Positions 2,582-34,713 of a stretch of DNA of 51,136 nucleotides are shown piece after piece (the stretch's first letter is position 1; every line of letters starts with the position of its first letter). The notes under the pieces are model-generated. The model was not told where the DNA came from and made no database searches. It was given only the letters and a program-made list of their open reading frames with translations. The position numbers and the translations under genes are program-made. This DNA comes from a virus (lineage: Duplodnaviria > Caudoviricetes). Location: positions 1 through 51,136 of the IMG/VR virus record IMGVR_UViG_3300048861_000266; one strand, given 5' to 3'.

Positions 2582-2976
2582 GGAAGTACCTCCGGTGGTG
2601 CTTTTGTGTGCTCCTTGACGATGGCGGCGGCGCGGCGAAGGTCGCCCACGGTGAACTTAGCCAGGTTGCAATTCGTTCCGGTCTGCCCGAACGGCGGTCG
2701 GTATCCAGCTTCCGTGGCTTTCCATTCGGCGGCATCAGCAGCAAACGGCCGCAGCGCATCCACCGCCTCCGCCAGCTTCGCGGCGAGGGTGTCACGCTCG
2801 GCTATCAGCGGGGCGATGACCGTCCGCATCTGGTCAGCGGTATACATGGCGACGACGTCGGGATCGCCTGCGGCCGAGTCGATCACTTCTTCCCACGTAC
2901 CCCAGCCTTTGTTTAGCGCGAAATTGGCGGTCGGCTCCGGCAGTTCCGCCGGCGCGGCTTTGGTCTGGTCAGCCAT
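2578..2976 (-). CDS. Hypothetical phage protein
   Basis: AAGGAG SD; ATGA overlap with the next gene. Confidence 0.65.
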   Translation of the reverse strand: MADQTKAAPAELPEPTANFALNKGWGTWEEVIDSAAGDPDVVAMYTADQMRTVIAPLIAERDTLAAKLAEAVDALRPFAADAAEWKATEAGYRPPFGQTGTNCNLAKFTVGDLRRAAAIVKEHTKAPPEVLP

Positions 2977-3049
2977 GGGCGGCTCCTTGGAGAGTGGCCA
3001 GGCCGTGACGCCTGGCTATAGAATGACCGGTCCCCCGCAGGAGGCTGCT

Positions 3050-3223
3050 ATGTGGAAATGCAGAAAATGCTTTGCCGATGTTGAATTCGCGGCGGTTGAA
3101 CCTGAGGTCGACAATGACGGCTGTTACTTCATCTGCCCGGACTGCGGGAACAGGAATGCACTGTTCAACGTAGGCGGGGGTGGCGACGATGACCCCATCG
3201 CGCTGACGCAATTGGATTCGTAG
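3050..3223 (+). CDS. Small zinc-ribbon protein (antisense moron)
   Basis: MWKCRKC...CPDCGNRN; AGGAGG SD; TAGAAT -10-like box at 3018-3023. Confidence 0.75.
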   Translation: MWKCRKCFADVEFAAVEPEVDNDGCYFICPDCGNRNALFNVGGGGDDDPIALTQLDS

Positions 3224-3361
3224 GCCTCTCGCACTGCACCCCCTTGCTTGCTGGCGCAGTGCGCATCCGCCAGCGCGGTGCCGCGGCGAGATTGTCCGAT
3301 CGCCATTAGTGGCCTCGTATGGTTGGTCGTACACTAGACGCGAGTCCTGGAAGGTGGCGCT

Positions 3362-14363: not shown

Positions 14364-14984
14364 GCTTTCTCCGTATTCCATCTGGGTGCGCTCTCGGCGA
14401 AAACGCACTCAGATGAATCTGGGGCGAGGGATCCGGACCACACCTGCTCATCGCAGCTTCCGGCTTACCTCTACCCATCAACCCATCGAGCGTTCTATAG
14501 CGGCCACTTGCCGCCAGGCGCTGTCTGGGTAGTCGTTGGTCTTCTATGCAGGGGTAACGAGTTGAGCCCTGTGCCAACGTGCCTTGCGGCCGTTGGCATA
14601 TTTATCTCTTACGGTGCAGCCCCATAGTCAGGCGGGCTAGCGATGGAACAACAGGAAACTCAGGGGAGGGCGCATCGGCTCTGCTATTCTTTCCACGCTG
14701 GCGCTAACGACGCCGGCTGCGGCCTGTTAAGCCGCTAAAGGTGATGCGGTGGATTTGGCAGCGAACGCCTGGCGGGGTCGCATACCCGGCCCGGATGGGC
14801 CAAACAGTGAAACGACGGTGAACACTGCTAAATCCAACGTTCAGCCGACGTGTGCGCAAGAGAAATCCTTTTGCGCACACGGCGAGGAGCATCCTAGGTA
14901 GCAACTCGCTAGCGCCAGCCAGGGCGCGAACACAAGTACAACAGGTCAACACCTGTACCGGTACGGGTCTTCCTTGGATCAACC

Positions 14985-15083
14985 ATGAAGATTTCCGTAA
15001 AAGAGGTGAGTGTTGAGTTCAGCGTCGCGGAGCTAATTGCTTTGGCCATCGCGATTCTGAAGTTGTGCTCGATGCTTCCCTAG
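14985..15083 (+). CDS. 32-aa hydrophobic peptide, type I toxin-like
   Basis: MKISVKEVSVEFSVAELIALAIAILKLCSMLP; hairpins up- and downstream. Confidence 0.5.
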   Translation: MKISVKEVSVEFSVAELIALAIAILKLCSMLP

Positions 15084-15151
15084 GTAAAGCGGGGCGGTTT
15101 CGGCCGTCCCGCCGCTCCTAAAGCCGCGCGTCCTCTCCTGAATTCCCTGAT

Positions 15152-15163
15152 TGTTAAAGAGCG
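15152..15163 (-). promoter_or_regulatory. boxA antitermination element (nutL-like)
   Basis: CGCTCTTTAACA about 110 nt downstream of the predicted pL start. Confidence 0.8.
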
Positions 15164-15279
15164 ATCCGGCACCGCCGGGTACTGCTGTATTCGTCGCTCC
15201 CGGCCCTACTGGGCTGCCTGTGGCTAGGCCGATCTGGCCGGGTGGCTGGCGCATCGGTGTTTCGTGATGCGATGAATGA

Positions 15280-15321
15280 ATATTAGTCCGACTGCTAGTA
15301 GCGGTCAACAGTCGGACTAAT
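15280..15321 (-). promoter_or_regulatory. pL promoter with two operators (OL)
   Basis: TTGACC-17-TAATAT on the minus strand; operators ATTAGTCCGACTGCT (15282-15296) and AACAGTCGGACTAAT (15307-15321). Confidence 0.85.
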
Positions 15322-15412
15322 AATAATTGTAACGACGGAGATTAGATGCGAGACTTCCATAGAGCCGCGCTTGGCGGCATCATGAATGCCTGTGACGAGT
15401 CAGGAGGGCAGC

Positions 15413-24498: not shown

Positions 24499-24576
24499 CG
24501 CGGTGTAGGGAAGTGGCCTATCCCGCTGGGCTCATAACCCGGAGATCGGCGGTTCGAATCCGTCCCACCGCAACCA
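24499..24576 (+). tRNA. tRNA-fMet (CAT), initiator type
   Basis: C1:A72 mismatch, GGG/CCC in the anticodon stem, CTCATAA loop, TTCGAAT, encoded CCA. Confidence 0.9.
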
Positions 24577-27784: not shown

Positions 27785-28255
27785 ATGGCAACGCTTCGAG
27801 ACGAGGTGAAGCAATTCATCGTCCAGGCGCTGGCCTGTTATGACACGCCGACTCAGGTATCTGAGGCAGTCAAGGACGAATACGCAATAGAGGTGCCGCG
27901 CCAACAGGTAGCGGCCTATGACCCGACAAAGTACGCCGGCCGGTCGCTCAGTGCAAAGTGGCGGGTCGTTTTCGAAGACACCCGCAAGCGGTTCCGAGAG
28001 GAGACTGCTGCAATCCCGATCGCCAGCCAGGCATACCGCCTTCGCACGCTGCAGCGCATGCTGACAAGGGTCGAGGGCCGCGGCAACGTGGTGCTCGTGG
28101 CCCAACTCTTGGAGCAGGCAGCCAAGGAAGTGGGCGACATCTATGTCAACCGCCGGCAGGAAGCCCCGAAGGCGACAGGCACAGACAATCCCTTGCCTGA
28201 CTCCGAATACGTTTTAAAGCCAGACGAAGATGCTCCAGCGAACCCGATTCTCTGA
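27785..28255 (+). CDS. Terminase small subunit (DUF2280-like)
   Basis: FIVQALACYDTPTQV...LLEQAAKEVG; overlaps the large subunit. Confidence 0.88.
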   Translation: MATLRDEVKQFIVQALACYDTPTQVSEAVKDEYAIEVPRQQVAAYDPTKYAGRSLSAKWRVVFEDTRKRFREETAAIPIASQAYRLRTLQRMLTRVEGRGNVVLVAQLLEQAAKEVGDIYVNRRQEAPKATGTDNPLPDSEYVLKPDEDAPANPIL

Positions 28256-29540
28256 AGGACCGGTTGCGCTGACGCCCAAGCAGGCGAACATTTTTGTATG
28301 GGGATGGCAGAAGACAGCACGCTTCCGCGATGCGGTGTGCGGCCGGCGCTTCGGCAAGACGTTCCTCGGCAAGGCTGAGATCCGGCGTGCCGCGCGTCTC
28401 GCTGCAAAGTGGCATGTCAGCACCGAGGACGAGATCTGGTACGCCGCGCCGACGTTCAAGCAAGCCAAGCGTGTTTTCTGGCGCCGGCTGAAGCAGGCGA
28501 TACCGCCCGACTGGCGCGAGACGAAGCCGAACGAGACCGAATGCTCGATCACGCTCAAGAGCGGCCACGTTATCCGCATCGTTGGCCTTGATGCCTACGA
28601 CAACCTGCGCGGATCCGGCCTTTTCTTCGTGCTGGTCGACGAATGGGCTGATTGCCCGTGGGAAGCGTGGGAAGAAGTCCTGCGGCCGATGCTGTCGACG
28701 TGCAAATACATCGTCAACGGCGAGCTGCAGGTCGGCGGGCACGCGCTGCGCATTGGGACGCCGAAGGGCTTCAACCACTGCTACGACACTTATCGCGATG
28801 GCCAAGATGGGCGCGAGCCTGACCACAAGAGCTGGCTCTACACGTCTGTCGATGGCGGAAACGTCCCGATCGAGGAGATCGAGGCGGCGCGGCGCAAGAT
28901 GGACCCGCGCACGTTCCGCCAGGAATACGAGGCCAGCTTCGAGAATTACACCGGCGTCATCTACTACTGCTTCGATCGTCGGCTGAACGCCACGAACGAC
29001 ACAGTGCAGAAGGGCGACACCCTGCATATCGGTATGGATTTCAACGTGGCGCATATGGCTGCGGTGGTTTTCGTGATCCGCCAGGGCCTGCCACACGCCG
29101 TCGATGAGCTTACGGAGGTGTTCGATACGCCGGCCATGATCGACAAAATTAAGGCGAGGTATCCGGATCATGCGATCGCCGTCTATCCGGATGCGTCGGG
29201 CCAGGCCCGCAAGACAGTGGGTGCCAGTGAATCCGACCTGTCGCTGCTACGCAAGGCCGGGTTCACGGTGGTGGTGAACAGCACAAACCCAGCCGTCAAA
29301 GACCGTATCAACAGCTCCAACTCGATGCTCTGCAATACCTACGGCGAACGCCGGATGCTAGTCAATCTCGACAAGTGCCCGAAGTACACGATGTCGCTCG
29401 AACGGCAGATCTACGACGAGAAAGGTCAGCCAAACAAGACCGGCGGCTTCGATCACCCGAACGATGCAGCCGGCTATTTCTTGAATCAGCGGTACCCCGT
29501 CACCACGAGAACGGCCGTGCAATCTCCATTGAGAACCTAA
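28230..29540 (+). CDS. terL: Terminase large subunit
   Basis: GRRFGKT Walker A, VLVDE Walker B, GMDFN and DHPNDA nuclease motifs. Confidence 0.95.
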   Translation: MLQRTRFSEGPVALTPKQANIFVWGWQKTARFRDAVCGRRFGKTFLGKAEIRRAARLAAKWHVSTEDEIWYAAPTFKQAKRVFWRRLKQAIPPDWRETKPNETECSITLKSGHVIRIVGLDAYDNLRGSGLFFVLVDEWADCPWEAWEEVLRPMLSTCKYIVNGELQVGGHALRIGTPKGFNHCYDTYRDGQDGREPDHKSWLYTSVDGGNVPIEEIEAARRKMDPRTFRQEYEASFENYTGVIYYCFDRRLNATNDTVQKGDTLHIGMDFNVAHMAAVVFVIRQGLPHAVDELTEVFDTPAMIDKIKARYPDHAIAVYPDASGQARKTVGASESDLSLLRKAGFTVVVNSTNPAVKDRINSSNSMLCNTYGERRMLVNLDKCPKYTMSLERQIYDEKGQPNKTGGFDHPNDAAGYFLNQRYPVTTRTAVQSPLRT

Positions 29541-30980
29541 ATGTCAGATGTTTCCGCCAAATGCGCCGCAGCCGCGAACATGGAATGCGACTGGATGCTC
29601 GTGGACGACCTCATGGGCGGCACGCGGGCCATGCGCAGGGCAGGGCATCGGCACATGCCTCAATGGCCGCTTGAGCACCACGACGAGTACAAGGAACGCC
29701 TGCACGTTGCGACACTGCTGCCGGCGTATAGCGAAACCGTGGCTACGATGGCCGGCCGCGTGTTCTCGAAGCCGATCAGCGTCGGCGATGACGTGCCCGA
29801 GCCTATCGCAGATGCCATCGTGCCGAACGTGGACGCCGAAGGTCGCAACCTGCATGTTTTCGCGCAGGACTGGTTCGAGACGGCACTGAATCACGGGCTA
29901 GCCTTCGTTTTGGTCGATTTCCCCCGTAGTGAGGCAGTGCGCACCAAGGCGGAAGAGAAGGCACTCGGCCTACGACCCAACTGGATTCTCGTGCGCGCCC
30001 CGCAGGTTCTGGGCTGGCGATCCGAGCTTGCAGGCGACACCAACCGGCTAACCCAGTTCCGCTTTCGCGAATGCATCACGGTCGAGGACGGCGAGTTCGG
30101 CCACATCGAAGTTGAGCAGGTTCGCGTGCTGGAGCCGAATCGTTGCCGCCTTTATCGGCTCGGTAAGGACGGGTGGGAGATGGTGGAGGATTTTCCCACG
30201 AGTCAGGGCGTGATCCCACTAGTTCCGCTCTACACCGGGCGCACGGGCTACATGACTGCGAAACCGCCTCTCCTCGAGCTGGCGCACCTCAACGTCAAGC
30301 ATTGGCAGAGCCAGAGCGACCAGGACACCATCCTGCATACCGCGCGCGTGCCCCTGCTGGCCCGGATTGGCGTGGAGCAGACGTATGACCGGCTTTCCGG
30401 CGAGGCCGAGCCGATGAAGATCAACAAATCGATGATCGACCTTCCCTTGGGCGGCGACGTGAAGTACGTCGAGCACACGGGCGCGGCCATCAAGGCCGGC
30501 CAGGAATCGCTCAACGAACTCGAAGAGCAGATGAAGACGGCCGGCGCCAAGCTGCTCACGCAGACGGTGCTGTCGCTCTCCGAAGGCCAGTCGCAGGACG
30601 AGCAAGCCAAGGAAATCAGCCAGCTCGCCAGTATGGCCGAGGGCCTGGAGGAGGCGATCGACGCTGCACTCGCATTCACTGCGAGCTGGATGGGCCTGGG
30701 CGATAGCGGCGGGCACGTTCAACTTACGCCCGACCTTGGGCAGGACGCCGCGCCGGCAGAAAGCATGAAGGTGCTCATCACCATGAACGCGGCCGGCGTG
30801 CTGAGTTCGCAGCTCCTCTTCGAAGAGGCTAAGCGCCGCGGGCTGATCTCGGACGACGTGGACTGGGAGGAGGAGCAGCAGCGGATTAACGATCAAGCAC
30901 CGTCTGGCGGCGCGATTGCCGCGATCCTTGCCTCGGCAAAGACTGCGCCGGCCGTGCCACCGCCTAAGCAGGCGGCCTAG
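29541..30980 (+). CDS. Portal protein (DUF4055-like)
   Basis: Position and size; KPPLLELAHLNVKHWQSQSD motif. Confidence 0.9.
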   Translation: MSDVSAKCAAAANMECDWMLVDDLMGGTRAMRRAGHRHMPQWPLEHHDEYKERLHVATLLPAYSETVATMAGRVFSKPISVGDDVPEPIADAIVPNVDAEGRNLHVFAQDWFETALNHGLAFVLVDFPRSEAVRTKAEEKALGLRPNWILVRAPQVLGWRSELAGDTNRLTQFRFRECITVEDGEFGHIEVEQVRVLEPNRCRLYRLGKDGWEMVEDFPTSQGVIPLVPLYTGRTGYMTAKPPLLELAHLNVKHWQSQSDQDTILHTARVPLLARIGVEQTYDRLSGEAEPMKINKSMIDLPLGGDVKYVEHTGAAIKAGQESLNELEEQMKTAGAKLLTQTVLSLSEGQSQDEQAKEISQLASMAEGLEEAIDAALAFTASWMGLGDSGGHVQLTPDLGQDAAPAESMKVLITMNAAGVLSSQLLFEEAKRRGLISDDVDWEEEQQRINDQAPSGGAIAAILASAKTAPAVPPPKQAA

Positions 30981-30982
30981 CC

Positions 30983-32038
30983 ATGGGTGCATTCGACGAT
31001 CGACTCGCCGCGCTTCTAACCGACTTGAATCTGGACGCCCTGCGCACTGCGGCGGGCCTCCAGGGTCAGGCCGAGGCGCAGATCCGGGATTTTGTCGCGC
31101 TGGCGCAGCGCACTCTGCAGGACGCCGATCCGACGAGCAAAAAGCAGCTCGAGGCCATCATCGCCCGGTGCCTCAAGGTGCTCGATACGGGCTACGCACA
31201 GGTTTCGGCGGCGCAAGTGAGCGCGCTGCACGATCTCGCCGCCCTGTTCGCCGAAGCATCGGTGCAGATGGTCAACCGGGCTGCCGGCACCGCGCTGCTA
31301 GTCATGAAGAACGTGTTGCTGCCCGATGTCGCCGAAATGGCAGTCAAGGGCGCGCCGTCCGCCGACTGGTGGCAAGCGCAGTCGCTGACGGCCCAACATA
31401 ACTTCGCGCGCGCCGTGCGCATCGGTTTCACCGATGGGCTAACGAACGACCAAATAGCACGCGGCATTGTGGGGAAGGGACCCGGTGGCGCTTCGTTGGA
31501 GGGCCCGGGATTCCTGGACGCTTCGCTGCGTGACGCGCGAACCTTGGTGCAAACGTCGGTGCAGACGATGGCCAATTCGTCGCGCCGAGCGGTCTTTACA
31601 GCGAACGACGACATCGTGATCGGCCTGCGGCAGATCAGCACGTTGGATTCGCACACCACCGTCCAGTGCCAGGCGCGCGACCACAAACAGTGGGACATGG
31701 AAGGCAACCCGGTGGGACACAAGATTCCCTACAACGGCGGCACGCCCGTGCATTTCGGCTGCCGAAGCGTTGAGGTGCCGGTTTTGAAGCCGTTGGTCAT
31801 CGATGGCAAGGAGATCGGAGGCTTCGAGTCGAGCAGCCGGGCCAGCGCTGATGGACCGGTCTCATCGAAGCTCGACTTCGAAGCCTACCTAGACAGCAAG
31901 TCCCAGGACTGGCAGGACGAAGTGCTCGGGCCTGGCCGCGCGAAGCTGTGGCGCGACAAGAAGCTGACGCTGGCGGACCTTCTGGACATGCGCGGTCGCG
32001 AACTGACGCTGGCCCAATTGAAAGCCAAGTACCAATAG
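30983..32038 (+). CDS. Minor head protein (SPP1 gp7/Mu F-like)
   Basis: STLDSHTT..C..RD...P.HFGCRS. Confidence 0.88.
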   Translation: MGAFDDRLAALLTDLNLDALRTAAGLQGQAEAQIRDFVALAQRTLQDADPTSKKQLEAIIARCLKVLDTGYAQVSAAQVSALHDLAALFAEASVQMVNRAAGTALLVMKNVLLPDVAEMAVKGAPSADWWQAQSLTAQHNFARAVRIGFTDGLTNDQIARGIVGKGPGGASLEGPGFLDASLRDARTLVQTSVQTMANSSRRAVFTANDDIVIGLRQISTLDSHTTVQCQARDHKQWDMEGNPVGHKIPYNGGTPVHFGCRSVEVPVLKPLVIDGKEIGGFESSSRASADGPVSSKLDFEAYLDSKSQDWQDEVLGPGRAKLWRDKKLTLADLLDMRGRELTLAQLKAKYQ

Positions 32039-32055
32039 ACCTACCTTTTTCACGA

Positions 32056-32091
32056 AGCCGCCCCTGAGCAATCACGGGCGGCTTTTTTATT
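32056..32091 (+). terminator. Intrinsic terminator
   Basis: AGCCGCCC/GGGCGGCT followed by a T tract. Confidence 0.8.
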
Positions 32092-32169
32092 GCCCGTCGC
32101 ACGGATGTGCCAGGGCGAAGCGCGGCGGATACCGCACGCATGAACGGCCGGATGGCCCAAGGAACAGCA

Positions 32170-32967
32170 ATGCCCTACAAATACGACGCCGATGGACACA
32201 TCGTTCTGCAAGAGGTTGGCGGCCAGAAGCTCCCCGTATTCATCCATGCGGATAACCGCGAGGCACCCCTGGACGGCGACAGCACCATTGCTGCCATTGG
32301 CCGGCTGAACGGCGAAGCGAAGAGCCACCGGGAGCGCGCCGAGGCCGCCGAGGCGAAGTACAAGCCGTTCGAAGGCATCGAGGACGCCGAATCGGCGCGC
32401 AAAGCGCTCGATACCGTCAAGAACATCAAAGACGGCGAACTGATTACCGCCGGCAAGGTCCAGGAAATCAAAGACGCCGCGGCGAAGTCCGCTCGTGAAT
32501 CGGTCGAGGCTGCCACGCGCGCCTCCGCCGAGCGCGAAAAGACCCTCACCGACGAGGTCGGCAAGCTCACTTCCAACCTGAACGATCGGATCATCGGCGG
32601 CAGCTTTGCCACCTCGAAGTTCGTCGCCGAGAAATTGGCAATCCCCGCCGACATCGCGCAGAAGTTCTTCGGCGATCGCCTCAAGGTTGAGAACGGCAAG
32701 CTCGTTCCCCTCGACTCCAACGGGAATCCGCTGTTCTCCGCGACGCGCCACGGTGAGCACGCCGACTTCGACGAGGCGATGGAGGTCTTCGTGGGCCAAT
32801 ACCCCAACAAAGACATGATTCTCAAGGGTAACGGCGCGTCCGGTGGTGGCGCGAAGAGCGGCAATCCCGGCGCCGGCGGCAAGAAGACGATGACCCGCGC
32901 GCAGTTCGACGCGCTCGATCCCACGGCCCGTCTCGCCGCGATCAAAGACACCGCGATCACCGATTGA
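32170..32967 (+). CDS. Head scaffolding protein
   Basis: Coiled-coil protein with Gly-rich linker and MTRAQFDAL tail, directly before the capsid gene. Confidence 0.8.
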   Translation: MPYKYDADGHIVLQEVGGQKLPVFIHADNREAPLDGDSTIAAIGRLNGEAKSHRERAEAAEAKYKPFEGIEDAESARKALDTVKNIKDGELITAGKVQEIKDAAAKSARESVEAATRASAEREKTLTDEVGKLTSNLNDRIIGGSFATSKFVAEKLAIPADIAQKFFGDRLKVENGKLVPLDSNGNPLFSATRHGEHADFDEAMEVFVGQYPNKDMILKGNGASGGGAKSGNPGAGGKKTMTRAQFDALDPTARLAAIKDTAITD

Positions 32968-33067
32968 CCCAGCAGCAATTCATTTTGCCGAGACCCGGAT
33001 GGGGATCGGAGCACCGGGCCGGATAGCCCACACACAAATCCCCTCCTGACGACTCAAAGGCATCAAC

Positions 33068-34411
33068 ATGCGTAAATTTTTCACTTCTTTCCGAGCCGCA
33101 GCTTTGCTCGGACTCATGGCATCGATTGCCGCCGCCCCGGTTGCGGCTGCACGGCCGCTGCTGGCCGGGTGCGCCGACAAGTGCGTTCTGTATGCCAAGG
33201 CGTTTGGCCTCATCGGCCATGCGCACCTGTTCAACTTCATGGTCCGCCGCGGGTTGGTGATGGGCGCCAACACTCTCACGGGGCTGATTCCTACCCTGTA
33301 CGAGGCCCTGAACACGGTGTCCCGCGAAATGGTCGGGTTCATTCCGGCCGTTCGCAGCGACAGCAACGCCGAGCGCGCGGCTGTTGGCCAGGTGGTCCGG
33401 GTGCCGATTGGCGAGTCCGGCGCGCTGGAAGACATCGTGCCGGGTCAACTGCCCCCAAACACCGGGGATACGACTCCGGGCTACATCGACATGACGATCC
33501 AGTACTCCAAAGCCGCCCCGATCAAGTGGAATGGCGAAGAGCAATTGGCTGTCGGATCGACGGGAACCTTCAACAAGCTGCTTGCGGACCAGTTTTCCGA
33601 CGGGATGCGTAAGCTGGTCAACGCGGTCGAATCCGACATCGCCCTGAAAGTTATGGCCGGCGCATCGCGCGCCTACGGCACGGCTGGCACCGCGCCGTTT
33701 GGTGTCGCAGGCGATCTGAGCGACGTGGCCGGTGTCCGCCAGATCCTCGAAGACAACGGCGCCCCGTTGTCGGACCTGCAGCTGGTGCTCGGCTCGGGCG
33801 GGATGGCGAATCTGCGCGGCAAGCAATCGGTCCTATTCAAGGTGAACGAGGCGGGGTCGAGCGACATGCTGCGCAATGGCATGACCGATCGTCTGCAGGG
33901 CTTCGCGCTGCGCAATTCGGCCGGCATCGTGCGCCACACCAAGGGCACCGGAACCGCCTATGTCACCTCGGGCGCCACGGCTGGTGGCGTGGCATCGATT
34001 GTGTTGGTCACCGGCACCGGCACGTTGCTGGCGGGCGATGTCATCACGTTCGCTGCCGACCCTGATCACAAGTATGTGGTTGGTGTGGGCGTTGCTGGCC
34101 CCGGCACGGTCCTGATCAACAAGCCTGGTTCGCGGGTGCTCATCCCGACCGCGAATGCGCTGACCGTCGGTGGTGACTACACGCCGAATGCCGCCTTCGC
34201 CCGATCGGCGGTTGTGCTGGCCGCCCGCGCGCCGGCCCTCCCGCAAGACGGCGATTCCGCTGACGATCGCATGTCGCTCGTCGACCCGATGACCGGATTG
34301 GCCTTCGAGGTCTCGATCTACCGCGGCTATCGCCAGATCAAGTACGAGGTGGCCCTGGCCTGGGGCTCGGCGGTGATCAAGCCCGAGCACGTCGCATTGC
34401 TGCTTGGCTAA
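33068..34411 (+). CDS. Major capsid protein (P22-coat-like); alternative start at 33260
   Basis: ANTLTGLIP...VSREMVGFIP N-terminus and WG..VIKPEH C-terminus; followed by a terminator. Confidence 0.9.
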   Translation: MRKFFTSFRAAALLGLMASIAAAPVAAARPLLAGCADKCVLYAKAFGLIGHAHLFNFMVRRGLVMGANTLTGLIPTLYEALNTVSREMVGFIPAVRSDSNAERAAVGQVVRVPIGESGALEDIVPGQLPPNTGDTTPGYIDMTIQYSKAAPIKWNGEEQLAVGSTGTFNKLLADQFSDGMRKLVNAVESDIALKVMAGASRAYGTAGTAPFGVAGDLSDVAGVRQILEDNGAPLSDLQLVLGSGGMANLRGKQSVLFKVNEAGSSDMLRNGMTDRLQGFALRNSAGIVRHTKGTGTAYVTSGATAGGVASIVLVTGTGTLLAGDVITFAADPDHKYVVGVGVAGPGTVLINKPGSRVLIPTANALTVGGDYTPNAAFARSAVVLAARAPALPQDGDSADDRMSLVDPMTGLAFEVSIYRGYRQIKYEVALAWGSAVIKPEHVALLLG

Positions 34412-34417
34412 CGAAAT

Positions 34418-34446
34418 GTCGGGGCCTTCGGGCCCCGGCTTTATTT
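34418..34446 (+). terminator. Intrinsic terminator
   Basis: GTCGGGGCC-TTCG-GGCCCCGGC-TTTATTT. Confidence 0.85.
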
Positions 34447-34458
34447 CTGGAGATCGCG

Positions 34459-34713
34459 ATGAGCGAACAAATCGAATTGGTGCCCCTTTCCCTTGCTGGC
34501 CAGTACATCGAGGTTCACCCCGATGCCGTCCAAGCGCACGCGGCCGCTGGCTGGTGTCCTGCCGAACGCCGCCCCGTTTCGAGTGAGGCCGGCGAGTCGG
34601 TATCGGCCATGACCGTACCGCAACTCAAGGATGCCTTGGCCGCCAAGGGCATAGAAATCCCCGCCGGCGCCAAGAAGGATGAATTGCAGGCCCTGCACGA
34701 CGCAACGGAGTAA
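34459..34713 (+). CDS. HeH/LEM-like domain protein
   Basis: MTVPQLKDALAAKGIEIPAGAKKDEL. Confidence 0.75.
   Translation: MSEQIELVPLSLAGQYIEVHPDAVQAHAAAGWCPAERRPVSSEAGESVSAMTVPQLKDALAAKGIEIPAGAKKDELQALHDATE

Follow-up and report, generated by a model that had tools for sequence, protein, structure and literature searches.

How the amounts of scaffold and coat protein are set in tailed phages is poorly understood, and the question is raised in a concrete form by the head-gene region of the virus record IMGVR_UViG_3300048861_000266 (Duplodnaviria; Caudoviricetes), where short hairpins exposing a GGAU loop stand both before the scaffold gene and in the spacer preceding the coat gene. The whole stretch of DNA that was analysed, hereafter the window, is a complete provirus record of 51,136 bases (94% complete according to the record, 61% G+C). 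A previous interpretation made from the letters of the DNA, the sequence-only reading, had regarded the hairpins as an RNA operator array coordinating the stoichiometry of the head proteins and read either by the host CsrA/RsmA or by a phage protein; the operator array and the phage protein as its reader are retained here, whereas CsrA is abandoned as the general reader. The RNA motif is almost certainly real and functional, its reader is very probably specific to the phage, and, as judged from comparative sequence data, the scaffold protein probably binds the hairpins as an autogenous operator by means of one of its helices.

The five hairpins previously described are all present on direct reading of the sequence, at 32099-32110, 32122-32135, 32146-32157, 32994-33003 and 33016-33029, with CGGAU occurring in or at the loop of each. 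When aligned to the covariance model described below, the apparent hexaloops of H2 and H2' become GGAU tetraloops closed by a C.A mismatch. This C.A closing pair is found in both elements (32126/32131 and 33020/33025), and a C-G or U-A pair occupies the same place in relatives. The scaffold-coat pair and its surrounding signals comprise the following features:

32054-32089, + strand: intrinsic-terminator-like hairpin and U-run, located 3' of the head-morphogenesis gene and directly 5' of element 1
32092-32116, + strand: element 1, hairpin H1, an outer stem GCCC/GGGC around GCAC-GGAU-GUGC
32122-32135, + strand: element 1, hairpin H2, GCGGC-GGAU-ACCGC, with the C.A closing mismatch
32146-32157, + strand: element 1, hairpin H3, GGCC-GGAU-GGCC, 1 base 5' of the Shine-Dalgarno sequence
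32159-32172, + strand: Shine-Dalgarno sequence AAGGAA (32159-32164) and scaffold ATG (32170), a start common to relatives
32170-32967, + strand: scaffolding protein gene, 265 aa, DUF6651, with phrog_784 and phrog_206 'head scaffolding protein'
32302-32343, + strand: scaffold codons 45-58, RLNGEAKSHRERAE, the helical motif that co-varies with the loop class and the proposed RNA-reading surface
32988-33009, + strand: element 2, hairpin H1', an outer stem CCGA/UCGG around CCC-GGAU-GGG
33016-33029, + strand: element 2, hairpin H2', GGGCC-GGAU-AGCCC, with the C.A closing mismatch
33068-34411, + strand: P22-type major capsid (coat) gene, with family homology from residue 67 (base 33266)
34418-34449, + strand: terminator-like hairpin from the terminator scan, at the end of the scaffold-capsid unit

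Hairpins of this type are rare over the genome, since a scan of both strands of the 51,136 bases for stems of at least 3 pairs enclosing a loop of 4-6 bases that contains GGAT gave 21 occurrences on the + strand and 24 on the - strand. The three hairpins of the 131-base leader (0.054 expected from the genome density, Poisson about 2.5e-5) and the two of the 100-base second spacer (0.041 expected, Poisson about 8e-4) are thus far above chance. With respect to folding stability, the second site is unremarkable (z +0.21), and the z of -3.07 obtained for the first site refers to a stretch which includes the upstream terminator. The minimum free energy (MFE) fold of that terminator-like hairpin (32054-32089) consists of a 10-pair outer helix, seven pairs of which are G-C, and a 3-pair apical helix, followed by UUUUUU; a simple terminator scan missed it, the loop being long. 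A promoter scan found no sigma-70-like promoter, and element 1 leads directly into the scaffold start codon. The scaffold-coat pair appears as a discrete unit within the late operon, bounded by the terminator-like hairpins at 32054-32089 and 34418-34449. Immediately 3' of element 2, a C-rich and G-poor box (AAAUCCCCUCC, 33031-33050) is paired by the MFE fold with the 3' arm of H1' (GGGGAU), a possible alternative structure, and similar CAAAUC boxes occur 3' of the element in relatives.

To which extent the hairpins are conserved was assessed with relatives of the scaffold protein and their flanks, taken from 70 IMG/VR loci and from 80 prophage loci in named GTDB genomes. The upstream regions of these relatives contain two or three GGAU-loop hairpins differing by their stems. 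GGAT is invariant three times in a MAFFT alignment of 32 leaders, for which RNAalifold predicted 14 pairs, 13 of them with compensatory changes, and the inner stem of H1 covaries, both sides having changed at two pairs in 17 of the 32 sequences. A covariance model (R1), built from the scaffold leaders of relatives alone and devoid of any second-site sequence, recognizes in the window both the leader (69.3 bits, E 4e-25) and the scaffold-coat spacer (34 bits, E 5e-11, H1 and H2 only), the next best match being only at E 0.15. Over 112 distinct model hits, 84% of the cells are paired; shuffles give 65%, none of 500 reaching the observed value, and slid registers do not exceed 55%, in an alignment fitted to the model and hence biased toward the pairing of the model; helix 3 of the model (H2) is paired at 98% over these 112 sequences, and in H3 all cells with letters on both sides are paired in related sequences. 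The covariation across phages that had been suggested as a check on the operator array is therefore observed, the stems covarying around loops nearly fixed at GGAU. A lone GGCCC-GGAU-GGGCC hairpin at 14788-14801, a weak match to the model (E 0.15), is surrounded by about 750 bases (14628-15385) that contain no long open reading frames (ORFs).

The position of the element is equally constant. A match ending at the scaffold start occurs in 78 of the 80 GTDB prophage loci, with a second match just 3' of the scaffold stop in 39 of them, and the IMG/VR loci similarly contain a match before the scaffold gene (68/70) and at the second site (41/70), the two misses, L039 and L063, being cut at their 5' end and deprived of upstream sequence. 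A further set of 80 loci anchored on the coat gene gave 74 matches. All locus matches are located on the sense strand, and none occurs elsewhere in the examined loci. Among 12 whole host genomes, with 150 candidates scored per genome, 15 matches were obtained at E <=1e-14, of which 13 correspond to prophage loci already fetched and two to further copies in one genome, G019. Altogether, the motif is carried by several hundred loci, including prophages of alpha-, beta- and gammaproteobacteria and Planctomycetes, and the Pseudomonas phages PS-1 and AUS531phi (76 bits each) and YMC11/02/R656 (63.5 bits, with a further 28-bit match at a second site), and a variant occurs in the Microcystis phage Me-ZS1. 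In several relatives, element 2 is itself placed between two terminator-like hairpins. Two public annotations overlap the element and are probably mis-annotations: a 117-base 'hypothetical protein' at 2956-3072 covers the hairpin array of Me-ZS1 (L246), and the scaffold start of AUS531phi (L247) has been placed at 3341, inside the element and 27 bases 5' of the model-aligned start codon.

Among 306 leaders of the GGA class, the last hairpin ends at a median of 13 bases (quartiles 11-14) 5' of the start codon, the centres of the hairpins are separated by a median of 22 bases, and 254 leaders have a T-run ahead of the first hairpin; in 32 leaders the last hairpin ends 0-3 bases 5' of the start codon, which places the GGA of its loop at Shine-Dalgarno distance. 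Within the 78 leaders from named genomes, H1 displays a GGAU loop in 57 and CGGAU in 5 more, H2 a GGAU loop in 57, and H3 a GGAU loop in 52 and GGAA in 18; GGAC and AGAA are minor variants, and GGAG is found in 0 of 234 loops. The element is an RNA structure under selection, with a fixed place on the sense strand and a loop sequence that is nearly fixed, and the covariation, the strand specificity and the constant position relative to the ribosome-binding site together support the RNA operator array proposed initially. Searches of Rfam 15 returned only the tRNA-Met at 24500 for the whole window at the gathering threshold, and no credible weak match for 31950-33350 at E up to 10. The literature covered, supplements excepted, contained no account of such an element; PMC5737381, which deals with 224 candidate RNAs, mentions neither 'scaffold' nor 'CsrA' nor 'GGA' in its main text, and the motifs reported there are included in Rfam, which gives no match.

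Which molecule reads the loops is best approached through the phages in which they differ. The window scaffold protein possesses a helical motif, LNGEAKSHRE (residues about 47-58), near-invariant in relatives as LNGEAKxHRE. In one prophage, L222, all three loops are AGAAA, and this stretch is altered in its scaffold protein. Relatives of L222 and of two other variants were fetched, resulting in 319 unique protein-plus-leader pairs, distributed as follows:

[H/N/Q]R motif, 306 pairs: GGA loops in 303, dominant in 292 and tied with AGAW in 11; no loops in the other 3
YK motif, 6 pairs: no GGA; 3 with GAAN and 3 with AGNAA
ESAxRR motif, 4 pairs: GNGAN in all 4, including the Microcystis phage Me-ZS1
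Other motifs, 3 pairs: GGA loops

All the hairpins of one element change loop class together, and these concerted switches imply a phage-specific reader without naming it. A quick IQ-TREE phylogeny of 128 scaffold proteins, computed after removal of the motif columns, provides 7 independent contrasts in loop class, and the motif class changes in every one of them (sign test p 0.0156). The variants are scattered over this tree, each placed beside GGA/HR neighbours, e.g., L323 as sister to L326 (support 98) and L319 as sister to L444 and L410 (support 95). Over the whole gene, identity between L323 and L326 is about 72%; they differ in a cluster at residues 44-57 and in their loops, and their flanking genes are unrelated. 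More generally, within the flanks examined (1.5 kb), the members of a class consistently share the scaffold gene alone. The loop class extends to the downstream side of the gene, since GAAN hairpins are found there in the GAAN-class loci L270 (4), L323 (2) and L459 (1), whereas at least two downstream GAAN hairpins occur in 0 of 298 GGA-class loci and at least two downstream GGA hairpins in 82 of the 298.

Residues that are unseen in 115 GGA-class proteins account for 55-66% at residues 49-60 of the variant-class proteins, compared to 5-15% over most of the chain (up to 0.27 near the glycine-rich region 228-243), and residues 1-40, which separate the leader from the motif, show an ordinary level. 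These unseen residues concentrate at N47, A50, K51, H53, R54, E55 and E58, i.e., on one face of a predicted helix spanning residues 36-67. R54 is encoded by all six Arg codons, which indicates that the constraint acts on the protein. A direct RNA-RNA pairing of the motif codons with the loops was rejected, the codons varying synonymously and AUCC being absent from that stretch. The rule linking motif and loop was then confronted with 95 new unique pairs, fetched after it had been formed. GGA loops were associated with 83 of the 90 HR proteins, AGAW loops with 3 and no loops with 4; the single YK protein was accompanied by three GAAN hairpins, an ENAGRR protein by three GNGAN hairpins and a KKKR protein by two.

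The co-variation of loop and motif suggests the scaffold protein as the reader, and a phage protein in that role, one of the two possibilities raised at the outset, is supported accordingly by the loop classes. Two copies of one structured mRNA element bracket the scaffold gene, three hairpins preceding it and two occupying the spacer before the coat gene, and their loops would be read by the N-terminal α-helix face made of N47, A50, K51, H53, R54, E55 and E58. By binding H1-H3, free scaffold protein would keep the 30S subunit from entering and lower its own translation, and the assembly of procapsids, by consuming scaffold, would release the block. More speculatively, binding at element 2 might couple coat synthesis, or the fate of the mRNA, to the same pool of free scaffold. 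Two properties expected from an autogenous operator are found here: a structured site stands at the ribosome-binding site of the scaffold gene itself, H3 being 1 base away from the Shine-Dalgarno sequence in the window, and site and protein appear to have changed together in all the contrasts and in the prospective set, with the caveat of linkage and of few independent origins.

Several observations weigh against this proposal. Leader and motif are close together, within about 300 bases, and the members of classes C and D sit on different backbones, so that block recombination could create part of the association and inflate the count of events; perhaps only 3-4 origins are truly independent, the tree was a quick one, and p reaches only 0.016. 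Exceptions to the rule also exist. At least six lineages (L069, L074, L100, L293, L548 and L552) combine GGA-type loops with a motif that is not of the HR type, among which L548 and L552 belong to the prospective set and L293 possesses a divergent motif yet caught by the HR pattern. Conversely, seven HR-type proteins are devoid of detectable hairpins, and at least one of their loci, L433, truly lacks the element. Element 2 is located 40-100 bases from the coat start, with a terminator in between in some relatives. The scaffold model (AlphaFold2, predicted local distance difference test score 74.8) gave no Foldseek match in the PDB with E below 0.98 and resembles no known RNA-binding fold, and a PDB sequence profile search returned nothing below E 0.15. 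Finally, the stretch was found in only 3 soil-metagenome DNA runs, with no RNA run among them. As an observation in its own right, two IMG/VR loci, L433 and L305, keep the HRE motif with no hairpin element on either side of the gene, the upstream gene reaching the start codon.

Part of these observations would be accommodated by another phage RNA-binding protein, encoded beyond the examined flanks of 1.2-3 kb and reading the loops, the scaffold motif co-varying by mere linkage. The concerted switches call for a phage-specific reader of whatever identity, the leader is physically near the motif, and the motif-loop rule has its exceptions. However, the scaffold gene is all that class members with different backbones have in common in the examined flanks, and the change in the scaffold protein is limited to a 12-residue face of an otherwise highly conserved helix instead of affecting the whole N-terminus, which makes a second protein an unlikely reader. 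The HeH protein encoded at 34459, which had been put forward as a candidate together with the scaffold protein, is present in only 33 of 230 related loci and was rejected.

A lower probability is assigned to an element acting in cis without any sequence-specific protein, as a 5' stabiliser after RNase cleavage beside the terminator, as a processing signal or as a standby site mimicking the Shine-Dalgarno sequence. The terminator and U-run preceding the element in 254 of the 306 leaders, the bounding of the scaffold-coat unit by terminators and the loop GGA found at Shine-Dalgarno distance in 32 leaders would all fit such a role, but the loop is nearly fixed while the stems vary freely, and the loops of an element switch class jointly and with the protein motif, so that a purely cis-acting role appears quite improbable. 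Shine-Dalgarno mimicry was rejected, as GGAG, a better Shine-Dalgarno match, is used in none of the 234 loops.

The reading by CsrA/RsmA deserves a closer look, owing to the likeness of the sites. According to this explanation, host CsrA/RsmA dimers would link the GGA-loop hairpins to the Shine-Dalgarno sequence, which also contains GGA, repress translation and tie head synthesis to host physiology. The loops and their flanks, e.g., CACGGAUGUG at 32100-32109, resemble the high-affinity CsrA/RsmE site, the sites are spaced by about 22 bases, and one of them adjoins the Shine-Dalgarno sequence. The hosts were examined with PF02599, for which E. coli, B. subtilis and T. maritima served as positive controls and all matched, in 40 genomes hosting related prophages, 39 of them with a motif-bearing prophage (L223 is without a match). 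PF02599 was found in 13 hosts, i.e., gammaproteobacteria and two Planctomycetes, and the three Pseudomonas phages named above carry the motif; PF02599 was not found in the other 27, every alpha- and betaproteobacterium tested, and no PF02599 match occurs in the phage. The excerpted text of PMC7366521 likewise describes Burkholderia cepacia, B. cenocepacia and S. meliloti as devoid of a chromosomal csrA, and reports csrA in 30 of 2,517 phage genomes.

Since 27 of the 40 hosts and the phage are without CsrA, CsrA/RsmA cannot be the general reader, and this half of the proposal made in the sequence-only reading is refuted as a general mechanism. The GGAU of H3 is at least as conserved in the classes without CsrA, being kept more in alpha- (12/13) and betaproteobacterial leaders (22/29) than in gammaproteobacterial ones (13/30). 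Moreover, there are elements whose loops have all changed to GAAN, AGNAA or GNGAN and are devoid of GGA, and the motif was not found in the host genes of the 12 genomes scanned. As the reader of the loops, CsrA/RsmA is held to be very unlikely, although it may, without being required, bind these near-consensus sites as well in hosts which possess it. That the inverted repeats are DNA sites, such as operators of a late-gene DNA-binding regulator, is hardly credible: the regular spacing of about 22 bases, roughly two helical turns, would suit it, but compensatory stem changes around a constant asymmetric loop fit a folded single strand, the model matches are on the sense strand only, and no sigma-70-like promoter was found.

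Coming back to the scaffold protein as the reader of its own leader, a broader and more tentative extension can be considered, which is held to be less likely than not. The scaffold family of this very widespread head module might consist of sequence-specific RNA binders, one helix face of which reads GNRA-like hairpin loops on either side of their own gene, using at least four mutually distinct helix-loop codes, HR with GGAU, YK with GAAN, YK' with AGNAA and RR with GNGAN. Such distinct codes would provide orthogonality between phages, by preventing related or co-resident phages from cross-regulating each other, and the copy preceding the coat gene would anchor scaffold protein on the mRNA that produces the coat protein, coupling assembly to translation.

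The neighbourhood of the unit is that of a head module, with the following additional genes:

28230-29540: large terminase
29541-30980: DUF4055 portal
30983-32038: head-morphogenesis protein, phrog_241
3' of the coat gene: 84-aa HeH protein (34459), then the head-tail adaptor

The coat ORF starts with an in-frame N-terminal extension of 66 residues (33068-33265), which exhibits a positively charged start, a hydrophobic stretch and a lipobox-like LLAGC. This extension is common to 16 of 230 related loci, most relatives starting at the position of residue 67, and it may represent a signal-like or membrane-targeting prefix, unless an alternative start is in use. The provirus also contains a tRNA-Met (CAU) gene at 24500-24572.

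With regard to the way scaffold and coat amounts are set, these results supply a concrete and widespread RNA element, occurring at several hundred loci, together with a named candidate for the reading surface on the scaffold protein, and the natural specificity variants predict the outcome of swaps between them. If the proposed recognition is true, helix-hairpin recognition pairs would gain a new family, usable as orthogonal translational switches, and the annotations which place small ORFs or start codons within the element would be corrected.

Compared to known systems, the element most resembles the CsrA/RsmA-RsmE sites, including those of the RsmY/RsmZ/CsrB decoys, by its several GGA-loop hairpins spaced about 20 bases apart, one of them beside the Shine-Dalgarno sequence, and translational repression is the outcome expected in both cases. 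GGA occurs, as in CsrA-regulated leaders, in at least two hairpin loops, one of which is at the Shine-Dalgarno sequence. Unlike in CsrA targets, GGA is dispensable here, homologous leaders of sister lineages having GAAN, AGNAA or GNGAN loops, and the element is kept where the hosts are without CsrA and was not found in host genes. It also differs from the Csr/Rsm families, and from decoy RNAs such as RsmY, RsmZ and CsrB, by the lack of any Rfam match and of a sigma-70-like promoter in the promoter scan.

The proposed mode of recognition recalls the N protein of phages lambda and P22, whose arginine-rich helix binds the loop of the boxB hairpin. A short basic helix would similarly read a GNRA-like tetra- or pentaloop carried by a stem of 4-5 pairs, and different phages would use different helix-loop pairs. 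The likeness concerns this recognition mode, not antitermination: the lambda nut sites lie after early promoters, whereas the reader proposed here is a structural scaffold protein and the sites occur in late head-gene leaders, at the ribosome-binding site.

The autoregulation of the P22 scaffold protein has been known since the 1980s, and the parallel with P22 drawn in the sequence-only reading holds for the phenomenon, free scaffold being proposed here, as for P22 gp8, to lower its own synthesis after transcription. It does not extend to the element and remains an analogy, since only 13 bases separate the portal and scaffold genes of P22, which leaves no room for the motif, and the P22 genome gave no model match at E up to 1; P22 was thus rejected as a carrier. 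Homology to P22 gp8 was not found either, in that the window scaffold protein matched only DUF6651 in Pfam and no direct comparison was made. No paper defining the RNA target of the P22 scaffold protein was found in the literature search, and the excerpted text of bioRxiv 10.1101/2022.12.13.520362 implicates the N-terminus of the P22 scaffold protein in its autoregulation.

Finally, the proposed circuit would follow the same principle as T4 gp32, gp43 and RegA, the coat-replicase hairpin of MS2/PP7 and the leaders of ribosomal proteins, in that an abundant protein would limit its own synthesis, or that of a partner, at a hairpin of the ribosome-binding site. Unlike these operators, the present element forms an array of 2-3 repeated hairpins, occurs on both sides of the gene, displays several specificity classes and would be read by a new protein family, the DUF6651 / GP20-like scaffold proteins.

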